Shown here: positions 38,385 to 60,867 of the stretch, piece by piece
Layout of the letters: the number at the start of each line of letters is the position of its first letter
How positions within the stretch are numbered: the first letter of the stretch is position 1
DNA from: a virus
IMG/VR virus record: IMGVR_UViG_3300045988_159706
Length of the DNA stretch: 64,000 bases
Reading direction: 5' to 3' (one strand)
Notes under the pieces: generated by a model
What the model was told of the DNA's origin: nothing
The model's input: only the letters and a program-made list of their open reading frames with translations
Databases searched by the model: none
Made by a program: the position numbers and the translations under genes

Positions 38385-38413
38385 ACTTGTGTATTTATTT
38401 AAAATTAGTACTA

Positions 38414-39355: not shown

Positions 39356-39369
39356 AATATTCTAATTTA

Positions 39370-40233: not shown

Positions 40234-40287
40234 ATTTTGTCTTATTCAAAATTTATCTATACATCATATAATCTATTAATGGTGATA

Positions 40288-40313
40288 AGATTCCCCTATT
40301 ACAAGGGGAATCT
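40288..40313 (-). terminator. terminator-like hairpin after the capsid gene
   Basis: 10-bp perfect stem AGATTCCCCT / AGGGGAATCT with a 6-nt loop, 16 nt downstream of the stop at 40329. The downstream tract on the minus strand is only weakly T-rich. Confidence 0.5.
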
Positions 40314-40328
40314 CTCACACATTTCTTT

Positions 40329-41744
40329 TTAGTTCTCTGACATCAGGATGAACGATCTGTAAGGATTGAATACACCTACACCAGCGTATCCCCAGTTGAT
40401 CAGTTTAGCTCCTGCTACAGGAGTCGAAACCTCACCACCTGATTTACCATCACGTCCACCAGGACCAGTTAACCAGTTATGAACAATCTGCAGACCTTTA
40501 AATGTAAACATTGAAAGTGCAGGACGTCCAGTTTTTCCATCAGCAGTTAAGTCAAGGAAGATACCAAATCTACGAGGTGATGGGAACTCAATATCAAAGG
40601 AACGGTCAATCTTAAATGCGATGGTATTACCTGCAAACTCATAAGCATTGTAAGTAGCACCAAGATTAATATAACCATTAGTAGCCTTTGAATAAATGAA
40701 TGCACCATTAGTCTTGTAGTCACGAATCCAATTTGACATTACTCTTTGTACATCATTCCACATTGCAGTGTTGCAAATGAAGATATACTGATTTCCAGTA
40801 GGCTTCTCTGATTTAGCAACCATTGCCTGCAGAGCAGTTTCAAAGATTCTGATATTTAATTTCGTAAATACATATTTACCTGCAAAACGCTCGATCTGAG
40901 GAATAATACCATCACCAGAGATAATAGGCTGGCCAGTTTCAGGATCGAAGATCTTAGCTTTACCATACTTATCTACGTTAGTTTTACCCCAAAGTAATGA
41001 GTTGTTACGAGCTAACATGAAAGTATCCAAACAATCCTTAGCAGCAGGATTCATCTTATATGTTACATCATCTTTTCCATCACCCTTACCAATTGTGATA
41101 AACTGATCTTCCATTGCAGCATATTTAGCTGAGTAGGAAACATCACAACGGTGCATTGAGATGAAAGTTCTATGTTTCTCAGTATTGCTCTGATATTTCG
41201 TATAACCTTCCTCATGCAGCTCAGGCTGATAGTTTGTTAAGAAACGAGTATTCATACCAGGCTGGCAAGCTGAGAGATCTAGCGTTGCAGAATAGTCAGA
41301 ATCCTGAATCTTACAAATCAGCTCAAAGTCAGCATCGCTTCTGCGAACTGGACGGCTAAGAACGATTAATTGCTGACGTGAATCTTCGATAATAAACACG
41401 TCATTTTTTTGATAGTAGTTCTCAGGGAAGTGAACTACGATGTCTGTTCCCTGTGCACCATCGCCTTCTGGCACTGATAAGAAAGGAACACGCTTGATGA
41501 AATTCACATCAATATCCCACTCAACCATGAATGAGTTAATTGATTGAAATGCATTCTTACGATCTTTCTCCATCGTATAAATGTTCATCAGCGATTCTGT
41601 AAGGTAAGTTGCCGTATACTGATCATATAATGACGATACGATACCTAGTCTAGCAGGATTAGTGCCTAAGAACTTAGAAAAGTCTTCATACGTTCTTGTA
41701 GAAGCCATTTCAGGGCGTATGGTAGTAAAACCTGTAATTTTCAT
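40329..41744 (-). CDS. major capsid protein candidate (471 aa)
   Basis: Uninterrupted ORF with a TAA stop. Visibly GC-richer than its neighbours; six Trp, all TGG, no TGA. Directly preceded by a scaffold-like acidic coiled-coil gene and followed by a strong hairpin. Size fits HK97-fold crAss-like MCPs. No homology search was possible. Confidence 0.65.
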   Translation of the reverse strand: MKITGFTTIRPEMASTRTYEDFSKFLGTNPARLGIVSSLYDQYTATYLTESLMNIYTMEKDRKNAFQSINSFMVEWDIDVNFIKRVPFLSVPEGDGAQGTDIVVHFPENYYQKNDVFIIEDSRQQLIVLSRPVRRSDADFELICKIQDSDYSATLDLSACQPGMNTRFLTNYQPELHEEGYTKYQSNTEKHRTFISMHRCDVSYSAKYAAMEDQFITIGKGDGKDDVTYKMNPAAKDCLDTFMLARNNSLLWGKTNVDKYGKAKIFDPETGQPIISGDGIIPQIERFAGKYVFTKLNIRIFETALQAMVAKSEKPTGNQYIFICNTAMWNDVQRVMSNWIRDYKTNGAFIYSKATNGYINLGATYNAYEFAGNTIAFKIDRSFDIEFPSPRRFGIFLDLTADGKTGRPALSMFTFKGLQIVHNWLTGPGGRDGKSGGEVSTPVAGAKLINWGYAGVGVFNPYRSFILMSEN

Positions 41745-41765
41745 ATACTAAATTATTTATTTTAT

Positions 41766-42827
41766 TTATAATAGTTCGTCCCATTTGGAACTAAGAGAGG
41801 TTCCCTGTGATTGGGGTTTAGTTTCTTTTTTTATAGTAACATTAGATTTTGGTTTTGGAGGAGTTGCTTTGCGATTTTTCTTCAACTCTTCTTTCCAATA
41901 ATTACTAATGTCAGAAATTGTATCTTTACCAAATAATCTATACCAAGCTAGCTCAACAATTACCTCAGGTTTTGATAAATCTTCAACAAATTTAGTTACA
42001 CCTTCTGGAGTTTGCTTAAATACATAATCATAAATTAGATTTTTATCTTTCTCTTCAAGAATTAAACTATCACTCTTAGGATCTTTATAATCCAAAGAAA
42101 TGTAGTTAAAATCATTTAATGTATCTACAAACATATTTTGATATGCCTTCTGTTGCTCTTTTTCAGCCTCTTCCTGCTCCTTGATATGATTTTCTTCTTG
42201 TTCCTTATATTGTTTTCTAATTAAATCTACTTTCTTTTTAAAGAGATCTTCATTAGATTTAGCTACATCTAGTTCAATTTTTAATTCTTCCTCTGTCATT
42301 TCAGGGAATTTAGCTTTTTGATCTGCCAAATATAATTCCTCATCAGAATAACTATCAATGGTATAAGTTTCTTGGCTGCTGTTTTTAGCCTTATATTCAT
42401 CAATAGCCTGTTGCTGATAATACGTAATTATATCTTGAAATGACGAATTCGTCTTACGAAGTAAATTGATAGTTTCAATTTCATCTTCTGAAAGACCTGG
42501 ATCTGTTAAAGATTCAAGAATTGAAAGCTGCTCATCCTTACTTAGAGTTCCAAAATCAACCTCTTCAGTCTCTCCTGTTTCCTCGTTTTCATAAATGATA
42601 GTTTTTCCATCCCGAATTCCACGACTCTTTAAGAAGGATGAAAATGCATCCAGATCATCTTCTTCCCCTGTTTCTTCAGTTCCTTCTTCAGAAGATGAAG
42701 AATCTTCTTCCTCTTCCTCAGTAGAATTACCTGCTGGCTCAATAACTTCCTCCTGAGTTTCAGTATTTAGATCCTCAGTAGTCTCATCATCCAGCAAATT
42801 GTCAAATTGATTATGTTCAAATTGCAT
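41766..42827 (-). CDS. scaffolding protein candidate (353 aa)
   Basis: Very acidic N-terminus (EEEEEDSSSSEEGTEETGEEDD) and a charged coiled-coil-like body. Sits immediately upstream of the capsid gene. TAA stop, no TGA. Confidence 0.55.
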   Translation of the reverse strand: MQFEHNQFDNLLDDETTEDLNTETQEEVIEPAGNSTEEEEEDSSSSEEGTEETGEEDDLDAFSSFLKSRGIRDGKTIIYENEETGETEEVDFGTLSKDEQLSILESLTDPGLSEDEIETINLLRKTNSSFQDIITYYQQQAIDEYKAKNSSQETYTIDSYSDEELYLADQKAKFPEMTEEELKIELDVAKSNEDLFKKKVDLIRKQYKEQEENHIKEQEEAEKEQQKAYQNMFVDTLNDFNYISLDYKDPKSDSLILEEKDKNLIYDYVFKQTPEGVTKFVEDLSKPEVIVELAWYRLFGKDTISDISNYWKEELKKNRKATPPKPKSNVTIKKETKPQSQGTSLSSKWDELL

Positions 42828-42922
42828 ATTTCTTATTTTTCCTTATTAGTTATAGATTATCTATTCGCTGCAAATATAACTACATTTATTTAAATGTCCA
42901 AATAAAATATTAGAATATTTTT

Positions 42923-44737
42923 TTATTTTATAATACAGACTTCTGGAATTTGAACTTTACCATCTGCAGTAATAGTAATTTGTGTTTCTCCACTACCAAT
43001 TGTTGCTGAACCATCCTCTTCAACTCTTATAGGTCCAAAACTGCAAAATGAAAGATGATTGTTAATATTATACATCTTATCCCTTTTCATATCACAACCT
43101 CCATCAGTTTCAATAGTAATCCATTTTTCATTTTTCTTATTAATGCCAATGAAAGATTGTTCTTTATTATAGAGCTTCAGATAATTTAAATTATCAGTAT
43201 TAACTAATGCAATTCCAGGATTTACAAAGTAACAATTACCTTCAGATGTTAATCCATAGCCTTCCAAAGTACCAAAAATGGAGTTTTCAGTCCCAGAGAT
43301 ATTTCCAATAATGTTTCCTGAAGAACCTGTAAATAAAATATCTCCAACTTTAGGATCTGCAGATATTGAAGAGCCTTTTTCAGCATCCTGCTCCTCTAAA
43401 CAAGAAGTAATATTTTCATAGATGGTTTTATTTGGCTCAGTAACTGGAGGGGATTCAGCCCATTCATTATAAATATCTATTTCTGTAGTATTAGTAAAAT
43501 AGCAATCACTTCCTGAAAGAATTACTCTAGCTGAAAACTCAGTACATCCAACAACCATAACATCAATTGTGCCATCATTATTCTTCCCTGAAAGAAAATC
43601 CCCTGCCTTTAATGAGTGCTTTTCTAATGTTAATTCAAAAGTTACTCCCTGATATTTTGAGGCAATATCTCCTGTATAATCAGTTATATTATATCATCTA
43701 TTATAAACTCCTTCTAAACAAGTTCTATCTGAACCATATTTATATTGTTCATATACAGAACTTGAAACAGGTAAAAATTTATATTGTTTGTATGGATAGA
43801 TGCCCTCTTCATTTAAGACAAAGTCAGTATCATTTAGTGTGTGAGGACCTCACTGATTATTTGAATTTAATTTTTGACATGAAGTTAAAGTGTTAGCGTA
43901 ATCAACAATAGACCCTAATTCTAACAGTAATCCATCATTAAAAGCAGTATAGATAAGATCAATGATACTATATCCCCCTACTAAGTAATTTTCATTAGAA
44001 AAATATTGAATATCTGGAAGACTTATGGAAGAGTCTAATTTATCAATTATATTAATTGCCTTTATAAGAATTCCATTACTAAAATATGTCTTTTTATTAA
44101 TAATATCAAAATCAGATTCTGATAATGGTGGATTTTCTTCATTCCCTCCAGAATCATCCGATAAAATTAGATTTTTTACTCTAATAGTATCAATAGTTAA
44201 CGAGCCATTCTTTAAATTTAAACTAGACTTCCCTTCTGAATCTCTAATGGAATCGCTAATAAGGTCTGTTATAGTTCATCTAGAAATAGTTTCATTTAGA
44301 TTCTTTCTGGCAAAACTAGATGATGAGATTCCATTTAAATATTCTGAATTGAGGTTCTTAACTAAATTAGTAGAATTTATATTAAAAGGAGCTTCTGATG
44401 TTGTTATAGTTAATGGAGTGGTAAATGTAGTATTAATTTGAGAAGCAATAGATACTGGAGTATATCCTTCATTTTCAGTAATGAAGAACTCCCCATCTTT
44501 AGTTAATATAAGATAATTATCTCCAGGATATTGTAAATCAGTTAAGGAGTCCTCATTATCTACAAAAATAACCTGAGGAGTTTCTTCTTTTTCCTCATCT
44601 TTATCCTCTTCATCATCTCCTCTAAAGTTAATCTCATAGAACCTATCCTTTACCTGAACATATACTCTACCTGATGTTTGCAGAATTAAATCTTTACCTT
44701 TATCTCCAACTTTGGAGTTATTTGATAGTGTTCCCAC
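42923..44737 (-). CDS. hypothetical structural protein, 604 aa when TGA=Trp, GTG start
   Basis: One frame merging 44276..44737 and 42923..43558; the whole 43559-44275 gap was walked. 3 in-frame TGAs (43694, 43850, 44276). GTG 44735-44737 directly follows an in-frame TAA, and there is no nearby ATG. Confidence 0.6.
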
Positions 44738-44750
44738 TTAATTATAATCT

Positions 44751-44797
44751 GTATTATAAAAAAAGAAAGGAATGATATAAAAAATACCATTCCTTTC
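44751..44797 (-). terminator. rho-independent terminator
   Basis: 10-bp perfect stem GAAAGGAATG / CATTCCTTTC (44765-44774 / 44788-44797). On the minus strand it is followed by TTTTTTTATAA, 14 nt downstream of TAG 44811. Confidence 0.7.
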
Positions 44798-44810
44798 CAT
44801 CTTCTGATTT

Positions 44811-45188
44811 CTAATGCGAGAGCATGTCTTTTAATTCATTTAGATCTTGTTGATTCAAAACCAAGGATTTATTAACCATTGGGATATCCATCTTTATTTT
44901 TCCTGCACCTATTTCAAGTTGCCCAAGTAATCCAGTTTCCACTTTAAATGGTTTAGTGTTAATTATGTTATCTGACATTTCTGTTAGAATACCTTCAACA
45001 TCAACTAATCCATCTTTGTCTGAAATCTGTTTTAGCAAAGCTTCAACTTTGTACATGTTATTATCAATTATTCTAGATGCTAGAGGCTTCATTAAAGCCA
45101 TCATAGGATTACTTTGTGATAGTGAGGTTAATTTAACACTCACAAAGTTCCTTAAATTATTCATTATAACGTCTACGTGTTGCGCCAT
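44811..45188 (-). CDS. hypothetical protein (125 aa), TAG stop
   Basis: ATG 45186-45188 to TAG 44811-44813. A terminator follows. Confidence 0.55.
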   Translation of the reverse strand: MAQHVDVIMNNLRNFVSVKLTSLSQSNPMMALMKPLASRIIDNNMYKVEALLKQISDKDGLVDVEGILTEMSDNIINTKPFKVETGLLGQLEIGAGKIKMDIPMVNKSLVLNQQDLNELKDMLSH

Positions 45189-45637
45189 TGTTTACAGAAT
45201 TCTTCATAGGTTAGACTTGGGTTATCCTTAGAAAATTCGCGGAACTTATTAAAGATAGCCATCTCATTGTCAGTCTCTTGGACGATCTTATTCTTCAACT
45301 TCTTAACTACTGATAATTGCCTTTGTAATAACTCTTTACCTTCTTGCGTGCCTTCAATTTTAGCTTTAACTAAATTTAAAAGCTCTATTTGAACCATCTT
45401 TTGAAGTGATGTAGTGATTTCACTATATTCTTTATCTTCAAAAAATCGATTCTTTTGACTTTCAGTTAGAGCATTCATCTCATTATCAATAGAATCCCAA
45501 ATAAGCTCCTTTGAAGCTGTTTTCTGTAATTGCATTAATTGAGATTCATAAGCTTTTACCCTTTGAAGTTGATCGGTAATGTCAGAAGCTAATAATGGAT
45601 CTGGATTACCTAGGAAAACTTGATTCACAGGATACAT
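45173..45637 (-). CDS. hypothetical coiled-coil protein (154 aa), TAG stop
   Basis: ATG 45635-45637 to TAG 45173-45175. 16-nt overlap with the next gene. Confidence 0.55.
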   Translation of the reverse strand: MYPVNQVFLGNPDPLLASDITDQLQRVKAYESQLMQLQKTASKELIWDSIDNEMNALTESQKNRFFEDKEYSEITTSLQKMVQIELLNLVKAKIEGTQEGKELLQRQLSVVKKLKNKIVQETDNEMAIFNKFREFSKDNPSLTYEEFCKQWRNT

Positions 45638-45655
45638 CTTAAACTAAGATTTTAA

Positions 45656-46345
45656 CTAGGCTGCAGGAGTTGTTGTAGGCTCAAATAGGATGCTATTTGA
45701 ATATCCTGAGCAAGGGCATAAAGGATTATACAGTGAACGCTGTACTGTGTCAGTACCTACTTCAACAGCAGCTACACGAATAGGATAGAATGTATTATTT
45801 GCATAATTTACTATCTTATTGTCAGCACACATTCTACGCTCAGCCTCAAGTCCTACCATGCCAGCTACACTAGCAATCTCCATCTTAGTTACTTTACTTC
45901 TCCAAGGTTCTACAGCAGCTTGTACAGCAGCAGCAGTTTCAAGTTTTCCAATACGATCGGCTAATACGTCGAATTGGTCTCTCTGATTTTTGTACAGTCC
46001 GAAGTCTGCATCAATTTGGCTTTTGTATAAACCAAACATCTCTGAATTGATTGTTTGACGATCGTTGAAACGAGCGTTAGCTGACAGCAAAGCAAAGTCA
46101 TAAAGAGCTTTTTGATTTGCTAATTCAGCGTTGCAAGAATGCTGCCAAGCTTGGAAAGTTGATGGGCCTGAAATAGCCTCAGCTGCTAAAGCACCTGCAG
46201 CGGCACAGCCTGCATTTCCAAACAGGTTTGATTTGCTAAGAGCCCAAAGGCCCAGAGCAGTTCCTGCGATACCAAGACCTAAGCCAGTACCAGCGACACC
46301 TTTTGATGCATACTCTTTGCGATCCTCGTCGTACTCATGTACAAT
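45656..46345 (-). CDS. GC-rich protein with a Gly-zipper-like transmembrane segment; start codon unresolved
   Basis: Frame is open from just after TAG 46346-46348 to TAG 45656-45658. The listed ORF starts only at TTG 46090. The upstream in-frame part encodes KGVAGTGLGLGIAGTALGLWALSKSNLFGNAGCAAAGALAAEAI and has the same GC-rich composition. I counted 97 G+C in the 190 nt 46141-46330. Confidence 0.55.
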   Translation of the reverse strand: MVHEYDEDRKEYASKGVAGTGLGLGIAGTALGLWALSKSNLFGNAGCAAAGALAAEAISGPSTFQAWQHSCNAELANQKALYDFALLSANARFNDRQTINSEMFGLYKSQIDADFGLYKNQRDQFDVLADRIGKLETAAAVQAAVEPWRSKVTKMEIASVAGMVGLEAERRMCADNKIVNYANNTFYPIRVAAVEVGTDTVQRSLYNPLCPCSGYSNSILFEPTTTPAA

Positions 46346-46390
46346 CTATTTTTCTACTACGTCCATAATTTGTTTAATTTTAAAGTTAAT

Positions 46391-46418
46391 GAAAAAATAC
46401 TACACTGGATTCCAGTGT
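46391..46418 (-). terminator. terminator-like hairpin
   Basis: Stem ACACTG / CAGTGT (46403-46408 / 46413-46418) with a 4-nt loop. On the minus strand it is followed by AGTATTTTTT. Confidence 0.5.
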
Positions 46419-46628
46419 GGTTATCAAATAACACGTTTTATAACATCATGCATGGACATTTTTGGAACTCACTTGTCTAATTACGAATTTTCGTTAAAAT
46501 TTTCCCTCAGTATGATACTATATCACTACAAAACGCATTCTCGAATCCCTTTTATGTATATATTCCTCAAAGAACTTGTTTTGCGTTATATGATATAACT
46601 TTAAAACTAAATATGTAGTAGAATAAAC

Positions 46629-46937
46629 CTAATTTTGAATCAACTCTACAAAATCAAGAATATTATCTGTAATGACATGCTTCTGATCCATTATATTTAT
46701 AACAGTTCGTAAGAACTCTGTCTCAGAATCATTAAATTCAACTTCAATGTCCTCCACATTTGGAGTTCACGAAATTTTTCCATCGGCTTCTTTTAAGTTA
46801 AGAGAAGTTATCTCCTCACTTGAGAAGTCTATTTTCTTGCGGATGTTTCTAGCAGAAATCATCTCAAGAACACTTCCTTGTTCTGGCAGATTAGTTAAAA
46901 TAGCTAATCTGGTTGCAACATTCATTTTCATAACCAT
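46629..46937 (-). CDS. hypothetical protein, 102 aa when TGA=Trp, TAG stop
   Basis: ATG 46935-46937 to TAG 46629-46631 with one in-frame TGA at 46767 (...DGKIS[TGA]TPNVED...). It was missed by the ORF track because each half is under 60 aa. The plus-strand ORF 46747..46971 is its antisense shadow. Confidence 0.55.
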
Positions 46938-46980
46938 TAAAAATTCATTTTTTCTATCTCTACAAAATTAGAGATTATAT

Positions 46981-47032
46981 TTATAAAATCAAAATTTTTA
47001 GTGCAAAAATATTAAAATTCTTGCACTAAAAA
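46981..47032 (-). terminator. rho-independent terminator after the last fibre gene
   Basis: 12-bp perfect inverted repeat TTTTTAGTGCAA / TTGCACTAAAAA (46995-47006 / 47021-47032). On the minus strand it is followed by TTTTGATTTT, 14 nt downstream of TAA 47046. Confidence 0.65.
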
Positions 47033-47045
47033 TTTTGAAATTTTA

Positions 47046-49286
47046 TTAGCCATAAATAGCACCATTAACTAACACTAACCCAGTATTAATATAAGTTATA
47101 CAATAACACTTATAACTACCTCCAGTTAAATCGTCTAAACCACTCATTTTTACGTAGTTACTTCCAAATGTTACTGTTGTTGCAGTAGGAACTACAATAA
47201 CTGCATCAGGATTACTACTTGTTACATATACAGTACTTACTGAATATGATGAAGAAGAACCATAGAATATACCCGCCTTACCTGGAGTATCTACGCTAGC
47301 TAAAGGCTTTGAAAAAATACTATCTAAATTAATAGTGGATGCCGATGACCCAGTATAGTTTGTAGTTGAACCTCCTGCTGTAATGTTTAATGCATATGGG
47401 TTTGGAAGAGCTATAGGGATTTCTGGAATATCATTAACATCTGCTGGAGTATATTGAAGAGCAGCTACAACAGAACTCTTACTAACAGCGACATAAGCGC
47501 ATCCTTCACCATCTACATGTACAGGTATATTAGCTAAATTTTCATTAAACCCAGTTTTTATACCTCCTAGAGTCTCTGGATCTGCTATAGGTAAAGTATA
47601 AGCTGAACCAGGAGCGTTATTAGTAATAGTTAAAGTTCCATCAACAAATGTTAATCCTATGCCAGTGCCATTTGCAATAGTTAGAGTTGTAGAACTATCA
47701 TTTAAAGTTGTGCTTCCAACTTTAACTGGCCTTCAAGTATTTTCTGTAGAATATCCCTGACTTGTAACCCAACTTTGAGTTGCATATCCACTTAAAGAAG
47801 GAATCTCACTTTTTAATGCAAGATTAGAAAGAGTTTGCCCTGAATTTTTAACAGATTTGGCACCTGCTCCAACTATAATATAATCTGTAGCAAGGTCTCC
47901 ACTAGCCATTACATCTCCACCGCCTGCAGAAGCTATTTTGTCATTTACTTCCTCCTTAGTGTAAACTTCATTAGTAGTATAATAGTTTCCTAAAGTTACA
48001 TTTAAGTCAGCTGTTTTAACATAGCTACTTAGAGTATTGGTAATAACTTTATTTTGAACAGGATTTTCTGATGTTGCACTTAAAGCAGAATCTACAACAA
48101 CTCCTTCTGGAATATTAAAGTTTAAATCAGATTCATCTACTTTATCCTTAGAAGCTAAAGCTCCAAGAGTTGGAAAATCAGTTATCTGATTTACAGTATG
48201 TGTATGAGCAGAAGGAGTAAAAGTTGAAGGCTTATTAGCTATCTTATTCCACTCAGGTTCAAATTGATTTACAAATTCCTTCGTAGCAAGATTAGTTAAT
48301 AAGATTCCAGAATCCTTAACAGTCTTTCCAGCCCCACCTGATGTAATTACTCTGTCAGCTGTTGTAAAAGGGGCCTCTGCGATAACATCTCCTAAATTAG
48401 ATAATTTTTCATCTATCTCAGATTCAGAATAAACTGAAATTCCTTTTACTGCAGCAATTTTATGTTTATTAGAAGCATCAACGTCAATAGAAGTAATAAC
48501 ATTACCAGTCCCAGACATACTAATCTCTACATTAGGAATAGTTGGAATTTTGCCCTCAATTTCAGTAATTAATGTGCCTACTTCTTCCTGACTGTAAGTT
48601 TCAGATTTAGTATATACTTGATCTTTTGTATAATAATTAGAAAGATCTACTTCAGTATTACCAATCTTTTCCCAGTTTCCTTCCACATAAACGTATTCAT
48701 CATGTACATCTGGATTAGTTCCAGCCTTTTTAACAAGATAAATTACATTAGTTTCTCCAGTTGATGGAAGTTCATTCAATACTTCAATTCTAAGATTAGC
48801 TAAATTACTGATCATTGTTTTTAAAACCTTTCCTTGAGTAGCAGATAGGGCTTTATTTGAATCTTCTGTGTCTAAATTATCTACAATTGCAGCCTTAATT
48901 GCATTAGGAATGGCAGTTGTTTCTATCTGACTAATCTTACTACTAAGATTAGTGCTTACAGTTGAAATTTCAGTAGATAGGGTACTATTTACATTAGAAA
49001 TTTCATTTAGGAGCTCTTGATGAGTTTTCTCAGCAGAGGTTTCTGAATCCTTTAATGCCTGATATACTCCTCCAGAAGTAATCAAATTTTTACTTCCTTC
49101 AGTAGGATAACTTTCAATTGATGAGATTATTACTGGTATTTTAGATAATACTTTATTAAACTCCTCTTCTGTTCCTGTATATCCATTTAACTTTGCAGTT
49201 TCATATGCAGAACGCCCTTCTGTAGAGTATAGAGGTTCCCACTGTTGTGTCTCCTCATTAAAATATTTTTTTGAATATGTTGTCAT
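47046..49286 (-). CDS. tail fibre protein, 746 aa when TGA=Trp
   Basis: ATG 49284-49286. The frame continues through TGA 47733 to TAA 47046-47048; the extension was walked codon by codon. Fibre-type motifs: SATQGKVLKTM, DLSNYYTKDQVYTK, SLSGYATQSWVTSQGY. Its C-terminal module is paralogous to that of the next fibre gene. Confidence 0.7.
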
Positions 49287-49305
49287 GTCTATAATATTTT
49301 AAGCA

Positions 49306-51627
49306 TTAAGCATATACTGCACCATTAACAGCAATTTTTCCATTTGCCATATAACTTAAGCAGTAGATATAATAAGTTCCAGATAAATCTGCAAGACCAT
49401 CCATCTTTATAGCATTTGATGCAGTGAATGTAAGTTTAGCAGTACTTATAATAACTGAATCAGGATTAGATGCACTAAATCCCCTTAAACTTGAAATAGT
49501 TCTTGAATCAGTATTATTATAGCTATAACCTGCTGAAACTGTACTACTACTTAATGTAGTTGTGCTAAGAATCTTTGGTGTAGTTATTGAAACTGCAGAT
49601 GAGCCTGTGTATGATGTACCATTAATTGTTAATGCATACGGATTAGGTAATGCAATAGGAATTTCTGGTATATCCATAGTATTAGCGGGAGTATATCCTA
49701 AAGCAGAAGTTACATTAGCTGAGGTTAATGAAATAGTTCCAGAAGATACTGAAATATTACTTCCAATCTTCACTCCACCAAGCACAGAGGCAGTAGCTGT
49801 AGGTAAACTATATGAATATGTACAATTGATGGCAGTTCCACTAATACTTATATTAGTACCAGCAGTATATGTAGTATTTGTATCTATCCAGGGAACATTA
49901 ACATATGCTTTACCATTATCTAATTGTACAGCATAGTTTTTACCACTTGTTGTGTATCCAATTTGAATTCCTCCATAAGTACTAGAGGTTGCTGCAGGAA
50001 TACTTGTTAAATATCCTTGACTAGTTACTCAATTTTGAGTAGCATACCCTGATAAGGATGGGATAGTTGGTTTATTAGTTAAGTCATTATAAGATCCACT
50101 TGTAGCTACAGTAGCGAATGTTGGTTTACCTGTTACTCCAGACCAAGGTACACTAGTTGCACTTCCTGCTGTGAATTCTTTAAATTTAGTAGCAAAAGTA
50201 GATGCAGATTCGGATACGCAGAAGTACATAGGACCTCCTGAACCAATCTGAACAACATCTCCTTCTTGTATAGTTAAACTCATTGCGGCAGATTGAGAAT
50301 CTACTACAAACAGCCTTTCTAATGCAGCTGCAGGAATTTTTTCAATAGGAATTTCTGGCAACCTATTAGCATCAATAGTTCCAGTAAGTTTTTCAGCATT
50401 AATAGTACTTATTGTTGTGTTTATAGTCACATTTTTAGATCCATTAAATGATTCTGTAGTAGAACCAGTGACATCTCCGTTTAAAAATATCTTTCTACCA
50501 TACATTAATGTTTCTGCAGCTGATGTTTTAGAAGCATATGGTACAGTAAAGTCATCAGAGATTTTATTTCCAACAGTTACCTGTATATAATTCTCATTCC
50601 TACTAAGTATAGGTTTTGTTGCAAGATTTGTAGCTGTAGTAGCTGTAGTAGCTGTAGCTGCATTACCAGTTATATCAACTTGAGCAGGATGTACGTGATC
50701 AGAGCGTGAATAAGCATTATCTGTTCCAGGAGATGCTTGCCCTAAAGGTTTTGGATCCGTATTTGATGGCATAATAGCTGCAAAGCTTGATGTTTTTTCT
50801 CCTGTAGGTTTAATTGTTCCAACATATCCAATCGTATTTAAAGTATTAACATCATTTAAACCTGCGAATGAAAAATATACATTAATATCATTAGTAGTGG
50901 CTTCTTTTTCTATTACATTAGCTGTAAATCTGAAAGTTGGATCCGTAGAATCAAATATTGTTAATGGTTTTTTAGAATTAAATGCTTCTAAAGCAGTATT
51001 ATAATCCTCAACTGTTTGGGAATTAAGATCTATAGTAAGAGGCAGTACATCGTTTTTATTTGCAGCATCAATATTTTCACGAGCTAGAGTTTTATTAGAA
51101 TCAGAGAGTGTTTGCGTTCTATCATATCTTATTGTGCCAGTATCTACAAATTGTGAATTTGTGCTATATATAATTCCTGTAGTAATACTTATTCTAATCA
51201 ACTCTAATTGAGAACTAGAATTTATTTTAAAGAAATAATGGTTACTGGAATCACCATTACCTCTTACATATATAAGGCTAGTTTCTTTAACTAATAAAGC
51301 TGTAGCTTCTAAACGTTTAGTTTTTTCAGCAGCATCAGGAGAAGTAGTTGCATTAATGTCTGATTGAGAAATAACATGGACTTTTCACCCCAAATTTTTA
51401 AATACTTGATCTTGTTTTTCAGTAGTTACTTCTTGAGGAAGTAAAGAAAGCGAATTAGCATCACATTGATATTCTTTGCCCCAAGTACAAATAGTTGGTC
51501 CTTCATCAATAAAGGATATATAAGCATCAAATACTTTACGTTCCTCTGTTCCTGCAGTAGTCTTTGCTCTCTCAGCTTCGTACGATGCTTTAGTTTTAAA
51601 ATGTAAAAATTTTGTTTTATATGCCAT
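49306..51627 (-). CDS. tail fibre protein, 773 aa when TGA=Trp
   Basis: ATG 51625-51627 to TAA 49306-49308. Merges 51385..51627, 50029..51201 and 49306..49785 through TGAs at 51385 and 50029; gaps walked. Contains SLSGYATQN[TGA]VTSQGY. Confidence 0.7.
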
Positions 51628-51660
51628 AGCGTCTATATTTTATATAGCACCTATAATATT

Positions 51661-51702
51661 ATAGGTTAAAAATAAAGGGAATAGGGAAATCCCTATTCCC
51701 TT
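51661..51702 (-). terminator. rho-independent terminator
   Basis: Near-perfect 12-13-bp stem AAGGGAATAGGGA / TCCCTATTCCCTT (51675-51702). On the minus strand it is followed by TATTTTTAACC, 12 nt downstream of TAA 51714. Confidence 0.65.
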
Positions 51703-51713
51703 ATTATCTTAAT

Positions 51714-53600
51714 TTATTCGAATTCAACCCATTCCATCTCAGCAGTTAGAGCAACTTTTTTTGATTTGCTATCCTTTACTGCAGAAACGTTTAAAGAACT
51801 TGAAGTAAACGTAACTTCTGGTACTGCATTATCAGCTTTAGTACCTTGGGCAGATGTAGCGGCTCCAATGCTACCTGGAGTGATATTAACAGTTTTTTGA
51901 GCGCTACCGTTGAATGTAAACTTTGTAGTTCCCTCGTTACTTCCACTATTTAATGTAACAATTAAGGAATTCTTTACTTGAGTAGCATTATCCGCAGTTC
52001 CTGCAGTCGCAGGTTTACCAATTAATACTTTTTGAGATTCACCATTACGTGGTGTAACAGTAAATGATCCATCTGTGCCATTTGCAAATACATAAGTAGT
52101 ATTTGTATCAGTTGGGAATGCCCAAGTTCCATCACCTCTTAAAAACGCAGCTTGTTTTCCTGCATCAGGAGCAGGAACAATACCTGCTGCACCTGCTGTA
52201 TTTGATGTTGCGGCTGTCATTTCTGCTACTGATCCAGAAATTGTTACAGTTGTACTACTTTTAGATGCAGATAGTGTTAAAGGAGCAGTGCCAGATGCAT
52301 TTATAGTTCCAACTCCACCTAAACCAGATAAGGTTGGTGCAGCTGGTATAGTACCAGTAATTATATCTGTAATATGGCCAGAACTATCAGCTGTAATACC
52401 TGTAACAACTTTACCACCAGCAGTAACAGGAGAACCAGCGGTTCCTGTAAGAGTTGTTCCATTAACAGGTTTATAGTGATTATTTACAGAAGTTACTTTT
52501 GTGTCAGTAAAGACAGCGTTTGAAGGTACGCTAGTGGCGATAGTATATGTACCATCTTTAATAACTTTACCTGTAGCTCCATCAAATACTGCAATATGAC
52601 CTGCTGTCGCAGAAGCTGGGCCAGTTACTGCGCCATCAATATTAGCCTGAACAACTGTTCAATCTGCATTAACTACTGTAGTACCACTAACAGGACCGTT
52701 ATTAATAGCAATTAGCATATCTCCAACCTCACACTTGATTCCCGCATAAGTTCCAGCAGTAATTACTTTATAGGTCCAACCTACTTTATATCCGTTAGCT
52801 GGAACTTTAGTAACAGTACCGTCTGTGCCTAATGTTCCTTTATAAATCATTGCATCAGCTGCAGCGATCTTATTATCAATAGCTGCAACGACAGCAGCAG
52901 CAGTTGGGATTGCAGTTGAACTACTAGCTAAAGTTGTTTGTACAGAGTAACCATTTTCAATAACTCCTGTCGTATTATTAAACTTAGGAATATATCCAGC
53001 AGTTGTTGTGGCATCTGTTTTAGTAACGTTATTTTTAATACTTGGAGAGACAATTACTGTTTGAGTTTCGCCATTACTTGGAGTTACTTTAAATCCATTT
53101 GATGCTCCCTGAAATGTATACGTTGTATTAGTATCTGTAGCAGGAATACCAAGAGCTGTTATATCTGTTTTAGTTACTGCTGCTGTACTTGTGACATGTC
53201 CAAACTTATCAGTTGCAATTTTATACAACCCTGATGTTTTCGCAGCAGCTCCTGCTGGAACAGCATGAGAGATAGTACGACTTTCTGCCAGATTTCCACC
53301 TCCAGATAACCCACCTGTTCCTGTTATCGTAATTGTTTTATCTACTTTTTTATCTAACGCTGCAGCTACAGAACTTGCTGACGCTATATCATTAAAATCT
53401 ACTTCAACAGTAGTATTATCTGATCTGGTAATTGTTAATTTATTACTTAATAATTGTGCATCTTTAAGCCCAATACCAAATACATCATATCCTGTATCTG
53501 TTTTAACTTTAATAGATTGAGTTGTTGTATCAAACCAAAGATTTCCAGTTTCGATTGTAGTAGGCTCTGTCGCTTTTTTAAAAAACTTAATTGTTGCCAT
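51714..53600 (-). CDS. tail fibre protein, 628 aa when TGA=Trp
   Basis: ATG 53598-53600 to TAA 51714-51716. Merges 52659..53600 and 51714..52220. The 146-codon gap has no stop and no start codon, and there is a single TGA at 52659. Repeated Thr/Gly/Ala-rich units (GHVTSTAAVTKTDIT, SGHITDIITGTIP). Confidence 0.7.
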
Positions 53601-53624
53601 GTTTATTTTTTTTTAAATTTTAAT

Positions 53625-53633
53625 CCCCCCCCC
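53625..53633. repeat. C9 homopolymer (G9 on the coding strand) in the 5' leader of fibre gene 51714..53600
   Basis: Read directly: taatccccccccctcac. A T9 run at 53606-53614 lies between it and the ATG at 53600. Confidence 0.9.
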
Positions 53634-53665
53634 TCACTAAATGTGAGGAAGGGAGAAATTATTAT

Positions 53666-54826
53666 TTATTCAATTTCTGATCAAAATATATCAAGCTTAC
53701 CGTCTGTTCCAACTTGGATAGATGAACTTGTTGATACTAATTTAGACATATCTACAGCTAAACCTCTAGAAGTACCTTCACCAGTTACCTTAATAGTATT
53801 ATCTGGACTAGTAATAGATGTAATGCCACCTGCAACAGCAGTTTTAATACTATCACTAAGAGCTTTCATACCTTCAGCAACTGTTTGATCTGCACCAATT
53901 TCAGCACCGCCAGTAATTGCTACTCCTACTTTTATATTGTTACCAGCAACCCTTGCCCTGTTTACTCTAAGTCCACTTTCAGATTTTGCTAATATATTAT
54001 CAGAAACAGGATCAATTTTAACATCAATAACATTCGCTTCTGAAATCTCAACAGCATCACCAGCTGTAAGAGCTTCTTGCTTACCTCCAACAGATGTTTG
54101 TAAATTCGCAATATCAGCCTTATTCGTTCTAATCTGATTTAAATCTGTATCTGAAATTAGACCTGAGCCTTCAACCTTATCAACTTTATTTGCAAGTTGA
54201 TTAGTAACAGTAGTAATCTGTTCTTCTAAAGCTGTATCAGCTGCTTCAAGTTCTGTTTTTGCTGCAGAAATAGCGCCATCTACTTGTGATTTAGTATAGT
54301 AGCCTGAAAGATCAATTGTACCTCCCAGAGGGTCCCAAGCTGCACCATCCCAGGCATAATTTGTACCTGCAGGAGTAGTACCATGAGCAACAACTACATT
54401 CCAAACATCACCTTTCTTATTTCCTTTAGTAGGAAGTTCTTCGTAAGTATCTTTAGTACCTTTGTAGTCAAGAGCTGCAGCTACAGAAGCTTTTAGTTCA
54501 TCTACAAGAGTTTTTAAAGCTTTACCTTGTGCTGCAGAAAGAGCAGCATCAGTTCTATCACTTTCAAGTGAGTTAATAATCTCTACAACTGTGCCAGTTG
54601 CAAGAGGTTCCCAAACTCGGTTAGAACCATCAGCATCAAAGCCTTTTAATACATAAGTGGTTTTATTTTCCTTTACATATACTAAAAGGCCTTCTACTAA
54701 CTGAATAGTAGGCATTGCATCCCGTTCAGCAATTGTAGCCTGAACTGTTCTATTATCTAATGGTAGATTCGCACCTAAGTCAAAACCAGAACCTACCGAA
54801 ATACCTTTACCAAAAAATTCTGCCAT
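53666..54826 (-). CDS. fibre-like protein, 386 aa when TGA=Trp
   Basis: ATG 54824-54826. The frame continues through TGA 53681 for four more codons to TAA 53666-53668 (...KLDIFWSEIE). Motifs SAAQGKALKTLV and IDLSGYYTKSQVDG are shared with other fibre genes. Confidence 0.65.
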
Positions 54827-54828
54827 AA

Positions 54829-55941
54829 TTAGTTAAAGTTTACATAGTAAGTACTAGGTTGCGACATCTTACCAGATAAATATACTGTATAATCAACCGC
54901 TTGACCATCTAAACCAGTAACCGAAACTGTACTAGTAGTATATGAACTAGTTACATCAAAGTTATTACTGTCTTTAATATTTGAAACCGATCAACCTGCA
55001 GGAGCAGCAAAACAAATATATTGTTCTGAAATTGGTCCAGCTACTTTAATTGTTTTCTTTGCAGAAGTAGTTTTAGTTAATCCTTTAATTACATCTTCTG
55101 TAATTGAAGCTGTAGAAACTAAACCTGAATAAGCAGGAATATATCCTGTTACTGTAACTGCACTTGAATCTACTGATCCTGCAGCTAAAGGAGTACCATA
55201 GTCGTTACCTTTAGAATCTTTAGGTTGAGGACCTTGTGCATGAGCAGCGTGATACTTATATGACATTGAGCCTTTAACTACCTTTGCGGGAAGTTCTTGA
55301 GATGAGCCATATAAAATATACGAATTCTCTGGATCTAAAGCTCCTGCGCGTTTTGCCTGCTCTTTTCCTGCGACTAAAATCTGGCCTTGATTAAATCCAG
55401 TATTAAAATTTGCAGCGGTTGGAGCATTTGCTCCTACTTCCTGAGTATTTGAATAGCCCTTTAAAGAAATAGTTGCAGTTGGAGCTACAAATGTGGGATT
55501 AACTGTTGGGAAGATAAGAGTATCAAAAATTTCATCATAACTCTTACCTGTAAGTTGTGCTACAGTTGTACCTGCGTTAATGCCCCCAAGTTTCTCTACT
55601 GTTGCTACACTAGGATCTAACGAAGATTCATAAGAACCACTTGCTGTAGGATCTAAGCTATCAAGTTTAGCTTTATCTTCTTTAGACATTAAACCATCGA
55701 CTAAAGAACTTGCTTTTACAAAGTCTAAATTCGAAGTGGTTGAATCTGTGTATGTAATCACAATGCCGTTAGCATTCTCATTTAAGGTTACATTAGCTAC
55801 TTTCTTGCTAGAATCACCTCCATACTCGGAGCCATTCAGCATAATTTTATGAGTATCTGTTGTAAAGAAAATGCCATTAGCATGGGTTACAGGATTATAA
55901 GCAGAACTAAGTCCTCTATAAAATTTTACAACACTTGCCAT
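54829..55941 (-). CDS. fibre-like protein, 370 aa when TGA=Trp
   Basis: ATG 55939-55941. The frame continues through TGA 54991 to TAA 54829-54831; extension walked. Contains GLMSKEDKAKLDSL, a motif common in phage fibre proteins. Confidence 0.65.
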
Positions 55942-55951
55942 TGTTTAAAAT

Positions 55952-57736
55952 TTAATTAATAACATCATTTCACACCATAGACGATGTATCTTCAATAAGC
56001 TCTTCTAAATTCTGTTTAATGCCATCTACCTCGGCTTTTGTGTAATAGTTAGATAGATCTACAGTTATAGTGCCACTTCCCCATTTCTCCCACAGATATG
56101 TATCTAACATAGTTTCGGCTTTAACCACTATATATTCCTCATATAAGTCATTAACTCCAGTTTGGGAAGCAGGGACTAACCAAATTATGTTTTGTTTTTC
56201 TTTTGTAGGCTCTCCAAGAGCTTCAAAATTATCAACAATTTTAATTGAAAATCCTGAAGCATTGGTTAAATTAGCAAAAGCTTCGGCAAATTTAGATTGA
56301 TCTAAAGCAGTTCCTCCAGCTTCTTTATATGCATGATATACAGCATTTAAATGGTCGAAATCAGCTTTATTTTTGGTATCAACCCAAATCATTTGTTCAG
56401 CATTCTTGTAGGCTTCTTGAATGTCTGCATCATCTAAATGAGAATTTCTAAAAGTGACAGGATCTTCTGGACCAACATGCACAGCATGTTCTCCAGTAAA
56501 TCCTCTAGGTATATAAAAATCCCAAATAGGATCTTTAATTGTACCTACATTTTCAATTTTAGGATCTTCCCATGGTTGTAGCATTTCTACCTTACCAGCA
56601 GTAAGAGTAGCGGCTGCTTTGCCTTTAGTAATTATAGTTGATGGGATTCAGCGATCATATATGATATTTCCGTTCTCATCTTTAATTGGATTTCCATTTT
56701 CATCTGGTGTTCATGTATAATGCCCAGATGAAAGCGTTACCTTAAGATGAGCATCATCGGTAATATCTACATCATCAATACTGACTCCTCGTAGATAGTC
56801 CATATAACAAAGAACTGTCCATTGACTAGGTAGTTCTCCATCATATCCTCATTTAATTGTATCATCTGTAAAATCTCGATACAATTTTAATTGTTTACCT
56901 TTAGGGCCTTGTTCTCCAGTGTCACCTTTGTCACCTTTGTCACCTTTAATGCCCTGAACTCCTTGTTGACCTCTAGGAATAGTAAATCTGAAAGCAGCTT
57001 CAGAAGCGGTTCCGACATTTACGATAGAAGCTTGAGAACCAGGATCTCCAGTAATAACAGAATCTACTCTGATAGTTGCCGCAGTTCCAGCAGGCCCTCT
57101 ATCACCTCGATCTCCCTTATCACCTTTATTTCCTTTTTCCCCTTGAATTCCTTGAACTCCTCTATCACCTTTATCACCTTTATCACCCTTTTCACCTTTC
57201 TCACCCTGAAATCCACGGATACCTTGGTCTCCTTTATCACCTTTATCACCTTTATTTCCTTGGTCTCCTTTATCACCTTTATCGCCCTTTTCACCTTTCT
57301 CTCCTTTTACATACATGGGAGGAATAGTTTGAGAGGGGGCTTCTTCTAAGACCCAGGTAATAAATCCAGTAGACTCATTGTACTCAGGTACGTACACCTG
57401 GCCATTTTCACCAGTTGCACCCGTAGCACCTGAAAATACAAATTCCCAGAAGGGTGAGTCTACACCAGTTGGTTTAGTAGAATCCTCAGGATCATTATAA
57501 AGTAATTTTGGCTCAGATAGACTACTAGACAAGTGACTCTTATGGCAAGCTAATAAAGTTCCTCTATAAGCTACAAAATCTTGAATATAACCATCATTAT
57601 AATAGTTAATTCCTGGTGCCCATCCTTGAGCAAAGTTAAAAGATTTTCCCTTATAAAAGTCTCTTGAATTAGATACTCCATAATATTCTCTTGAATTCTG
57701 AAGGTCAATATCTGGTTGTATATTAATTTTTTTCAT
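55952..57736 (-). CDS. collagen-like tail fibre protein, 594 aa when TGA=Trp
   Basis: ATG 57734-57736 to TAA 55952-55954. Merges 56849..57736 and 55970..56584 through TGAs at 56849, 56711, 56648 and 55970; gap walked. Has two G-X-Y arrays. Its N-terminal ~100 aa are paralogous to gene 57742..60867. Confidence 0.7.
57086..57304 (-). repeat. collagen-like G-X-Y array (about 24 triplets, GDKGDKGDQGNKGDKGDKGDQG...); a second shorter array lies at 56894-56971
   Basis: Periodic GGT/GAT/AAA-type 9-nt units are visible in the DNA. The translation is uninterrupted G-X-Y. Confidence 0.85.
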
Positions 57737-57741
57737 ATAGT

Positions 57742-60700: not shown

Positions 60701-60867
60701 TATGATACAAAATCAATAATGTTTTCATCATTGAAATATCGTGTATTAAGATCCCATGTAGACATCTTAAAAGAAGTTCCTGTATAAAAATCACGAGAAC
60801 TTCTTAATTTATAGTATTCCTCTGAAAGAGCCTTCTCCATAAAAGGATCCTTATTATATTTCTTCAT
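57742..60867 (-). CDS. collagen-like tail fibre protein, 1041 aa when TGA=Trp
   Basis: ATG 60865-60867 to TAA 57742-57744. Merges 60037..60867, 59137..60030 and 57907..58623. The 171-codon stretch 58624-59136 has no stop and no start codon. TGAs at 60037, 59137, 57907, 57865 and 57796. Multiple short G-X-Y arrays. Confidence 0.7.
60415..60576 (-). repeat. collagen-like G-X-Y array (GTNGKGVKGDKGDAGPKGDPGEQGPEGPKGDKGDKGDKGD...); further arrays at about 60124-60222 and scattered through 58740-59960
   Basis: G-X-Y periodicity in the translation and repetitive GGx-rich DNA. Confidence 0.85.

Follow-up and report, generated by a model that had tools for sequence, protein, structure and literature searches.

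In Mycoplasma and Spiroplasma, genetic code 4 is an organism-wide, host-native reassignment in which RF2 has been lost and TGA is the main Trp codon. Bacterial tRNA genes, for their part, can harbor group I introns in the anticodon loop, examples being the cyanobacterial tRNA-Leu(UAA) and tRNA-fMet, the latter with the PD-(D/E)XK endonuclease I-Ssp6803I. Among phages, TGA-to-Trp recoding was described in the Zeta group of crAss-like phages, whose genomes are of 145-192 kb (Yutin 2021, PMC7886860; 'Lera' phage paper 2025, PMC12386605). For similar opal-recoded genomes of ~176 kb, Faecalibacillus, Holdemanella and Parabacteroides were proposed as hosts, and several of these genomes were tabulated without a TCA suppressor (PMC12386605); the opal-recoded Zeta genomes so listed include 3075_90106, ctddo16, ctvkg4 and ctPTU4. 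The same recoding is found in other gut phages, and only some ~35% of code-4 genomes yielded a suppressor tRNA (Borges, 10.1101/2021.08.26.457843).

The stretch of DNA that we analysed, 64 kb in length and referred to here as the window, corresponds to the module that encodes the structural and giant proteins of a phage. The codon comparisons given below show TGA to behave throughout the window as a sense codon that stands for Trp and is never required as a terminator, and they make it very probable that this phage, a human-gut crAss-like phage of ~175 kb and ~32% GC, most probably of the Zeta group, translates TGA as Trp (genetic code 4). The finding is correct yet already known, since TGA-to-Trp recoding in the Zeta group has been published (Yutin 2021; Borges 2022; Zeta/Lera 2025). 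The features on which the analysis centers are listed in Table 1.

Table 1. Location of the features analysed in the window.
Feature	Coordinates	Strand	Description
Gene array	128..63736	-	Spans the window; ~75 in-frame TGA, ~141 TGG
Head-gene block	36383..46039	-	0 TGA among 19 Trp codons
Major head protein	40329-41744	-	PHROG major head protein; inside the head-gene block
Fibre gene A	47046..49286	-	746 codons with TGA = Trp; terminator TAA; minus-strand translation
Fibre gene B	49306..51627	-	773 codons with TGA = Trp; terminator TAA; paralogous to gene A over the C-terminal ~270 aa
Motif copy A	47751..47804	-	IPSLSGYATQSWVTSQGY
Motif copy B	50011..50064	-	IPSLSGYATQN[TGA]VTSQGY
TGG (Trp), reference column	47769..47771	-	Gene A codon 506, within IPSLSGYATQS-W-VTSQGY
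In-frame TGA facing Trp	50029..50031	-	Gene B codon 533
Second in-frame TGA of gene A	47733..47735	-	Codon 518, 12 codons past the motif Trp
Other in-frame TGA of gene B	51385..51387	-	Codon 81

Judged by the sequences of its TerL and portal, the phage is a divergent crAss-like one. The TerL of L133, a near-identical relative (99.96% identical to the last 7 kb of the window), had its best annotated matches among Crassvirales TerL proteins (29-31% identity, E = 1e-49), and the portal matched Crassvirales only, at 23-27% identity. The contigs of relatives measured 172-179 kb, GC ranged from 0.29 to 0.37, and ENA/Logan contigs were 99.6-99.97% identical to the end regions of the window. A 258-aa protein of this phage is indexed in 456 collection blocks. 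The window capsid matched only two unannotated GenBank records and gave no Pfam Crass_capsid match at E <= 0.01, a weak one being seen in a homologue only; a Pfam search of nine TGA-free window proteins returned P22_portal only, and a megablast of positions 44000-54000 against GenBank phages returned no match. Related capsid genes were found in metagenome-assembled genome (MAG) bins of Faecalibacillus, Lactobacillus and Oscillospiraceae, binning being weak evidence. The size of ~175 kb, the GC content of ~32%, the TGA recoding and the introns of relatives together point most probably to the Zeta group.

An earlier note on this DNA had taken two adjacent fibre genes as an internal calibration, claiming that a TGA in one of them aligns with a TGG-encoded Trp in a motif duplicated between the two. 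The coordinates that it gave for the motif, the TGG and the TGA were all exact, and so were those of the genes, but it left unstated the minus-strand orientation of the two genes; on the plus strand the same coordinates are noncoding and contain stops only. The TGA at codon 518 of gene A was absent from that note. Pairwise alignment of the two translations by blastp (E = 2e-46) gave clear homology over the C-terminal ~270 residues and placed the TGA of gene B exactly on the Trp of gene A, as had been claimed. Gene A reads ...EIPSLSGYATQSWVTSQGYSTENT[TGA]RPVK... around codon 518 and gene B ...TIPSLSGYATQN[TGA]VTSQGYLTS... around codon 533, the gene B peptide across the latter site being ...GYATQN?VTSQGYLTSIPAATSSTYGGIQIGYTTSGK, where the question mark stands for the TGA. 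A degenerate version of the motif, with NNN at the test column, matched the window twice (47751-47789 and 50011-50049, both on the minus strand), against a chance expectation of 0 matches (100 shuffles).

At the DNA level, the two motif copies were identical at 53 of 81 nt and differed by many synonymous changes (ATT/ATC, CCT/CCA, TCT/TCC, AGT/TCA, GGA/GGG, GCA/GCT, GTT/GTA, ACA/ACT and CAG/CAA), and therefore the motif peptide was kept by selection and not by recent DNA copying. The TGG/TGA pair in the motif looks like one further third-position difference: the paralogues have a conserved aromatic column in common, within GYATQxWVTSQGY, for which gene A uses TGG and gene B its synonymous variant TGA. 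As to the further claim that the pair assigns Trp without any external database, the column is indeed aligned, but the pair alone cannot separate Trp from Phe or Tyr, both of which are also tolerated at this column across the wider family. The label of fibre gene is reasonable for both genes. Gene A matched Pfam Phage_fiber_rpt (E = 1.9e-10, 40.7 bits with a cut-off of 27), as well as tail-fibre and minor-tail PHROGs; gene B, which has more than 4,700 database homologues, harbors a phi29 head-fibre-like motif, YSLP..LGGVK.G, and it is this motif and the paralogy to gene A that suggest its identity as a fibre.

Trp stood at the motif column in 100 of 100 database homologues having the motif, a figure that is partly circular, some contigs of the lineage having been gene-called under code 4, and so a check at the DNA level was necessary. 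In the DNA of relatives, the column of the fibre-B motif was TGG in L004-L007 and TGA in L001-L003. Scanning IMG/VR with NNN at the column recovered 128 distinct instances, with TGG in 91, TTY in 23, TAT in 7, TGA in the remaining 7 and no other codon, the TGA-bearing instances coming solely from contigs of 31-36% GC. Across these viral contigs the column is thus TGG, Phe, Tyr or TGA only, and instead of Gly or another residue dominating it, which the earlier note had named as the outcome that would speak against its claim, TGG prevailed (91/128, with Gly in 0/128). Beyond the motif, the codons opposite 28 TGA sites of the window, selected by a strict local-context filter, were TGA (127), TGG (33), GCA (1) and GTT (1), and the BLOSUM62 scores summed over these sites were 93 for W, 15 for Y, 6 for F and -21 for G. 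For the TGA at 47733-47735, the aligned residue was W in one orthologue, P0101, whereas 63 homologues of the fibre-B type had Y, and the codon of L002 was TGG; the TGA at 51385-51387 was kept as TGA in three relatives. The assignment of TGA to Trp thus holds also on evidence independent of the paralogue pair, namely the codons of relatives, the window-wide sites and the NNN scan.

We also compared the window with the distant MT835470, a syntenic relative of 117 kb that apparently uses the standard code. Window TGA sites were TGG at 4/18 and Tyr at 4/18, evidence that is weak at such an evolutionary distance because the window TGG sites themselves were TGG at only 26/52.

The same codon tables bear on two other amino acid assignments. 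TGA is read as Gly (code 25) in phages of Absconditabacteria and Gracilibacteria; such phages are known from human-associated samples (Borges preprint 10.1101/2021.08.26.457843), and the genome studied here is low in GC. Yet Gly occupied the motif column in none of the 128 instances, no GGN stood opposite any of the 28 TGA sites (with the BLOSUM sum at -21 for G versus 93 for W), TerL and portal are crAss-like, and the bins into which related capsid genes fell were Bacillota MAGs rather than those of CPR bacteria. The codon tables effectively refute a Gly assignment, which we regard as exceedingly improbable. They do the same for selenocysteine or cysteine, whose probability we consider practically negligible: ARAGORN calls the UCA tRNA of relatives (described below) 'SeC', but it does so because of the anticodon and the long extra arm only, ~75 sites in 64 kb are far too many for selenocysteine, no Rfam family, SECIS included, matched in the window, and no TGY was found opposite any TGA site or at the motif column.

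With TGA assigned to Trp, the ~34 genes of the window all terminate in TAA (the majority) or TAG, with short intergenic gaps. Reading through TGA extends the longest window ORF from 1369 to 2554 aa and yields a contiguous gene array, in which giant ORFs of 2552, 2490 and 1485 aa are present. Were the TGAs true stops instead, the fibre genes would be split or pseudogenised, or the TGAs would be assembly errors, and the downstream parts would be separate ORFs. Many gene calls of the lineage do look this way, the database calls of the gene B-type fibre being fragments of 166-512 aa, compared to 773 aa in full, that begin just past TGA positions; we attribute these fragments to a code-11 artefact, because other contigs of the lineage were called full-length. 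Moreover, the TGAs recur across many independent assemblies (127 aligned TGA), their replacement is specifically TGG (33 of the 35 non-TGA codons), both frame and protein conservation run on past them, and it would take ~75 such stops in 64 kb to interrupt an array that read-through renders contiguous, all of which makes true stops highly improbable. For annotation, the consequence of the Trp assignment is large, as the standard code breaks the window into fragments, and the paralogue pair serves as an in-sequence control that justifies translation table 4 for the whole contig.

TGA accounted for ~35% of the Trp codons of the window and was unevenly distributed, with 75 TGA and 122 TGG counted outside the head-gene block and no TGA within it (Table 1); gene 30985-34698 is one of those with TGA sites. 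In relatives, TGA was also found in the opposite-strand replication block and in ORFs adjoining the tRNA gene, although the automatic merging of ORFs in the opposite-strand block may overcount. A recoding confined to late genes is unsupported, because TGA occurs in the opposite-strand block as well. This spread over structural and replication blocks, rather than late genes only, together with the ~32% GC, would also suit a phage whose host natively uses code 4 (Mollicutes-type), with no phage-driven recoding. We nonetheless consider such a host very unlikely, given that TGA supplies just ~35% of Trp codons and is missing from the head block, whereas it dominates among the Trp codons of code-4 Mollicutes, that the lineage has its own UCA tRNA, that the standard code is used by crAss-like phages and by the hosts put forward (PMC12386605) for comparable opal-recoded genomes of ~176 kb, and that the MAG bins containing related capsid genes, weak evidence as binning is, were those of Faecalibacillus, Lactobacillus and Oscillospiraceae.

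In the proposed mechanism, TGA would be decoded by a phage-encoded opal-suppressor tRNA with the anticodon UCA, as judged from near-identical relatives rather than from the window itself. ARAGORN found no tRNA in the 64-kb window and no Rfam family matched there; in relatives, the ±10 kb around the window, a further ~45 kb leftward and 10 kb past the origin-side end were likewise free of tRNAs. A tRNA with a UCA anticodon was present, however, in 20 of 20 related contigs spanning a site at a distance of ~55-60 kb from the left end of the window, among them the IMG/VR contig 3300045988_136281, which is 99.2% identical to the window where the two overlap. The tRNAs of this lineage lie scattered deep in the replication block, and a search of MT835470 found none. 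The UCA tRNA occupies a single conserved locus in two interchangeable forms, A and B, and bears the tRNATrp-like mark G73, joined in one form by A1-U72 and a CU-NCA-AA anticodon loop. Form A, borne by the closest relative, is GC-rich and non-canonical, with an ATCGTTA T-loop, and had no match in Rfam, tRNA family included. Form B is tRNATrp-like, and its long extra arm looks like the anticodon arm of tRNATrp, the CUCCAAA loop being conserved and its stem covarying. Support for the cloverleaf comes from compensatory changes at 12 of 25 pairs and, in the other form, from a compensatory replacement of G-C by A-U.

The UCA tRNA gene is split in its anticodon loop in 8 of the 20 contigs of the lineage, as well as in more distant relatives, by an insert of 346-633 nt that falls after position 34 and before position 35; spliced and CCA-tailed, the tRNA would measure 91-94 nt. 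U is the last nucleotide of the 5' exon and G that of the insert, whose ORF bears a motif resembling PD-(D/E)XK. A 346-nt variant of the insertion gave a full-length but sub-threshold match to Rfam Intron_gpI (below the gathering score), a 600-nt variant had no Rfam match, and group I intron matches were present in relatives. By these features, this mobile insertion is probably a group I intron that carries an endonuclease ORF. Standard tRNA finders miss UCA tRNA genes split in this manner, and a gene hidden by its intron from tRNAscan-type surveys would explain opal recoding without visible suppressor tRNAs in Zeta crAss-like phages. We tentatively propose that the lineage may read TGA via this atypical, two-form and partly intron-split phage tRNA(UCA), with the extra arm of form B perhaps keeping TrpRS recognition. 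The tRNA would presumably be charged by the host TrpRS, and suppression is likely to be less efficient than normal decoding, which would account for the complete lack of TGA in those head genes that are most highly expressed.

A further possibility accepts TGA as Trp but regards its role as chiefly regulatory: as in the phages described by Borges, TGA would act as an early stop that is read once the suppressor tRNA appears, gating late and lytic genes, and a TGA before the C-terminal domain could give rise to short and long fibre isoforms. Recoding is enriched in the late and lysis genes of other recoded phages (Borges preprint; PMC7886860), codons 518 (A) and 533 (B) both precede the common C-terminal domain, and the intron-split tRNA gene of some relatives would add a maturation step. 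We find such a role rather unlikely, as TGA is also used in the relatives' opposite-strand block and in ORFs beside the tRNA gene, the motif TGA is not conserved, being TGG in L004-L007, and the late head genes are precisely those without TGA. We prefer the reading of TGA as a minority codon for Trp.

This reading adds nothing new to code biology, TGA-to-Trp recoding having been described in large crAss-like gut phages since 2021. Its useful by-products concern how suppression is done and how efficient it is, namely the TGA-free capsid block and the odd, probably intron-split UCA tRNAs of relatives. What may be new is the atypical tRNA(UCA), located outside the window.

Compared with the opal-recoded Zeta phages of Yutin 2021 and of the 'Lera' phage paper, the present phage is alike in its human gut origin, its size and composition (~173-180 kb, ~30-33% GC) and its richness in tRNAs and introns, and in both cases table 4 restores structural genes, TerL and giant proteins, with homologues having Trp at the suppression sites. 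It differs in that its tRNAs are scattered in the replication block, whereas theirs form one block that opens the genome, in its TGA-free capsid block and in a UCA tRNA that is non-canonical, intron-split or both; its membership in Zeta is one that we infer. With the Agate and Jade phages of Borges it shares the approach by which the code was read, in-frame stops being translated as X, aligned and read off as Trp, and close relatives that vary between TGA and TGG; these, however, belong to other phage clades and were calibrated on database terminases rather than on an internal paralogue pair, and in the present lineage TGA is not restricted to late or lysis genes. As in Mycoplasma and Spiroplasma, a tRNA with a UCA anticodon would read UGA as Trp, but in the present virus, the likely hosts of which follow the standard code, TGA is a minority Trp codon whose use depends on the gene. 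The insert in the relatives' tRNA resembles the bacterial tRNA group I introns in its anticodon-loop position, 5' exon U, terminal G and PD-(D/E)XK-like ORF, the difference being that here a putative intron interrupts a phage opal-suppressor tRNA, outside the window. Finally, the YSLPTATASVLGGVKIG of gene B resembles the YSLPAATTTTLGGVKKG of the phi29 head fibre gp8.5 (PDB 3qc7), a match at the level of the motif only (E = 0.1), without global homology.

Fibre genes A and B lie on the minus strand, which the earlier note had left unstated, and its coordinates for both genes and for the two codons proved exact on translation of that strand; the plus strand of both intervals offered no open frame and many stops. 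The in-frame stops within A and B are TGA without exception. In the pairwise alignment that the note had proposed (blastp, E = 2e-46), homology was clear over the last ~270 residues and poor over the N-terminal two thirds, and the gene B TGA fell exactly opposite the gene A Trp. A degenerate DNA motif with NNN at this column matched the 64-kb window twice (47751-47789 and 50011-50049, both minus), against a chance expectation of zero from shuffled sequence. Compared codon by codon, these copies share 17 of 18 residues and differ at most synonymous positions, including a six-fold serine codon switch (AGT versus TCA), with 53 of 81 nucleotides identical. The motif peptide is thus under purifying selection, and TGG/TGA, which differ by a single transition, behave as another silent third-position difference.

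The pair had been taken to assign TGA to Trp by itself; TGA does align to Trp, but a lone pair cannot separate Trp from Phe or Tyr. Seven related loci were obtained by way of database homologues of the fibre; at the codon orthologous to 50029-50031, three (L001-L003) have TGA and four (L004-L007) have TGG. When all fetched loci were compared window-wide, with a filter of at least 5 identical residues among the 10 flanking ones, 28 window TGA sites had aligned relatives, carrying TGA 127 times, TGG 33 times, and GCA and GTT once each, with TGG present in at least one relative at nine sites; BLOSUM62 sums over the aligned sites were W 93, Y 15, F 6 and G -21. W also occupies the motif column in 100 of 100 database homologues carrying the motif, a count only partly independent, as some lineage contigs were gene-called with code 4 (TGA read as Trp), and so the DNA test carries the weight. 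Signs of such calling are the 'does not translate to query' status of L001 and other products that are full-length with TGA inside. The phage is abundant, and public databases are inconsistent in how its genes are called (homologues P0001-P0120; loci L001-L007, L131-L136): code-4 calls give full-length products and code-11 calls split the 773-aa fibre into fragments of 166-512 aa, and because the two codes are mixed, W in a database homologue is not always independent evidence.

An unbiased scan of IMG/VR with the pattern GGNTAYGCNAC-N7-NNN-GTN-N6-CARGGNTAY returned at least 120 stretches. Among the matches listed (at least 128 distinct instances), the free codon was TGG in 91, TTT/TTC in 23, TAT in 7, TGA in 7, and no other; the contigs span 29-65% GC, every TGA case falling in contigs of 31-36% GC. 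Among these instances the column is strictly aromatic, and glycine, which the earlier note had set against Trp, was never seen. Codon 518 of gene A, a second TGA, aligns to W in the orthologue and to Y in 63 fibre-B-type homologues, and is therefore an aromatic position too. The observation is confirmed, and with orthologue DNA, protein databases and the unbiased scan agreeing, the reading of TGA as Trp is supported.

All long ORFs of the window lie on the minus strand. Reading TGA as sense lengthens the longest ORF from 1369 to 2554 aa and yields a nearly gap-free array of ~34 genes, each ending in TAA or TAG, with ~75 in-frame TGA to ~141 TGG; reading through TAG or TAA gave no comparable gain in the window. 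TGA usage is uneven (see table). Outside the head-gene block, the window's Trp codons comprise 75 TGA and 122 TGG, and a TGA-free head block would arise by chance with a probability of 0.62^19, ~1e-4 (our own arithmetic). That the most abundant virion proteins avoid TGA may indicate that suppression costs more than normal decoding. Recoding is not confined to late genes here, because relatives have TGA in the opposite-strand replication block as well, possibly overcounted by automatic ORF merging. Amid the otherwise tightly packed array, a ~700-bp stretch (43559-44275) has no minus-strand ORF; it is overlapped only by plus-strand ORFs of 109 and 138 aa, gives no Rfam match, and is matched by an equally long gap in relatives (L004, 16072-16788).

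Features of the window and of related loci
Feature	Coordinates	Strand	Remarks
Fibre gene A	47046-49286	-	746 sense codons, TAA end; includes ...EIPSLSGYATQSWVTSQGYSTENT*RPVK... (minus-strand translation)
Gene A motif Trp codon, TGG	47769-47771	-	
Gene A second-site in-frame TGA	47733-47735	-	codon 518
Fibre gene B	49306-51627	-	773 sense codons, TAA end; includes ...TIPSLSGYATQN*VTSQGYLTS... (minus-strand translation)
Gene B motif in-frame TGA	50029-50031	-	
Gene B additional in-frame TGA	51385-51387	-	
Head-gene block	36383-46039	-	ten genes, including major head protein (40329-41744); 0 TGA/19 Trp codons
Gene with extreme TGA preference	23553-24728	-	7 TGA/0 TGG
Gene with extreme TGA preference	30985-34698	-	16 TGA/8 TGG
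Collagen-like repeat protein	55952-57736	-	GDKGDKGD / G-x-y tracts; 4 in-frame TGA
Collagen-like repeat protein	57742-60867	-	GDKGDKGD / G-x-y tracts; 5 in-frame TGA
Giant ORF	128-7786	-	2552 aa, 10 TGA
Giant ORF	7790-15262	-	2490 aa, 9 TGA
Giant ORF	17142-21599	-	1485 aa, 6 TGA
UCA tRNA-like gene, relatives L407-L426	L409 8527-8617; L426 9697-9790; L407 7927-7956 + 8557-8617		examples
Split UCA tRNA loci	L407 (insert 7957-8556), L408, L411, L413, L416, L421, L422, L425; L369-L377		

For gene A, matches were to Pfam Phage_fiber_rpt and tail-fibre PHROGs. In gene B there is a phi29 head-fibre-like motif, YSLP..LGGVK.G; residues ~600-630 of this gene, YSLPTATASVLGGVKIG, resemble the motif YSLPAATTTTLGGVKKG of phi29 head-fibre gp8.5 (PDB 3qc7, E = 0.1). 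Motifs related to xLGG[IV]K.G are repeated in both genes, and the codon-518 TGA is the aromatic/hydrophobic position directly preceding one of them. Further window products are a portal (P22_portal; PHROG portal) and a major head protein (PHROG). Both genes with long collagen-like tracts lie upstream of the fibre genes, the Pfam Collagen match being on a homologue in L131, and the three giant ORFs are probably a crAss-type transcription and virion-RNAP block.

A phage suppressor tRNA is expected, yet often not found, in recoded phages (including in the Borges preprint, 10.1101/2021.08.26.457843), and tRNA and Rfam family searches of the window found none. Walking related IMG/VR contigs outward from both window ends, we covered about 130 kb with no tRNA before reaching a scattered tRNA region ~55-60 kb past the left end. 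There, between tRNA-Leu(UAG) and tRNA-His, a single site holds, in all 20 of the lineage loci that cover it, a tRNA-like gene with the anticodon loop CU-UCA-AA, in two forms. Form B (93-94 nt; A1-U72, or G1·U72 in two variants; G73; canonical D arm) is tRNATrp-like, scores 57 bits with the Rfam tRNA model, shows compensatory changes at 12 of 25 pairs across six variants, and has a long extra arm whose conserved loop CUCCAAA mimics the tRNATrp anticodon loop. Form A (91 nt, 61% GC, non-canonical T-loop ATCGTTA) is recognised by no Rfam model; it folds as a cloverleaf plus extra arm, and in one variant a G-C pair of the anticodon stem has become A-U by compensatory change. IMG/VR contig 3300045988_136281, 99.2% identical to the window across their overlap, carries form A intact. 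The UCA tRNA of the relatives is probably an opal suppressor, its identity elements suggesting that it would be charged with Trp, and the phage very likely encodes such a suppressor outside the window.

An insert of 346-633 nt interrupts the gene, exactly between U34 and C35, in 8 of these 20 lineage loci and also in more distant relatives; U ends the 5' exon and G the insert, and most inserts contain an ORF that has a PD-(D/E)XK-like motif. With the insert removed in silico, ARAGORN recognises a tRNA(tca) gene in all 15 cases. Rfam Intron_gpI yields a full-length match to the shortest insert that stays below threshold (18.5 bits, E = 0.024) and covers the core elements GACUAAA and GAUAUAGUC. 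Split genes escape ordinary tRNA finders, an invisibility that may explain the 'missing' suppressors of published tables; we found no description of intron-split suppressor tRNAs in these phages in the limited literature searched. TGA-to-Trp recoding itself is already known (10.1101/2021.08.26.457843; PMC12386605; PMC7886860). The value of the paralogue pair is as an annotation control for translating the contig with table 4, and the unusual, partly split UCA tRNAs of relatives, outside the window, are the only potentially new element.

The capsid's sole GenBank matches are two unannotated human-gut records, including MT835470, which is syntenic with the window and appears standard-code because TGA read-through lengthens none of its ORFs; a tRNA search of it found none. 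The portal's remaining matches are all Crassvirales (23-27% identity), and TerL, read from a contig that shares 99.96% identity with the window's last 7 kb, is 29-31% identical to Crassvirales TerL (E = 1e-49). By these tests the phage is a divergent crAss-like one. Capsid-gene relatives fall in MAG bins (L428-L431, GTDB genome contigs) of Faecalibacillus (a 154-kb contig, probably a whole phage), Lactobacillus johnsonii, Oscillospiraceae and Ca. Scybalousia. The bacteria so named use the standard code. As weak evidence, the bins hint at a possible Bacillota host, or may be a binning artefact; their names agree with the Faecalibacillus/Holdemanella hosts predicted for similar genomes (PMC12386605). 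Contigs of relatives measure 172-179 kb. The Zeta crAss-like group comprises deep-branching, intron-rich genomes of 145-192 kb with TGA-to-Trp or TAG-to-Gln recoding (PMC7886860), and opal-recoded genomes of ~173-177 kb and 30-33% GC are tabulated in PMC12386605; the present phage fits this group, to which it would belong, and especially those opal-recoded genomes.
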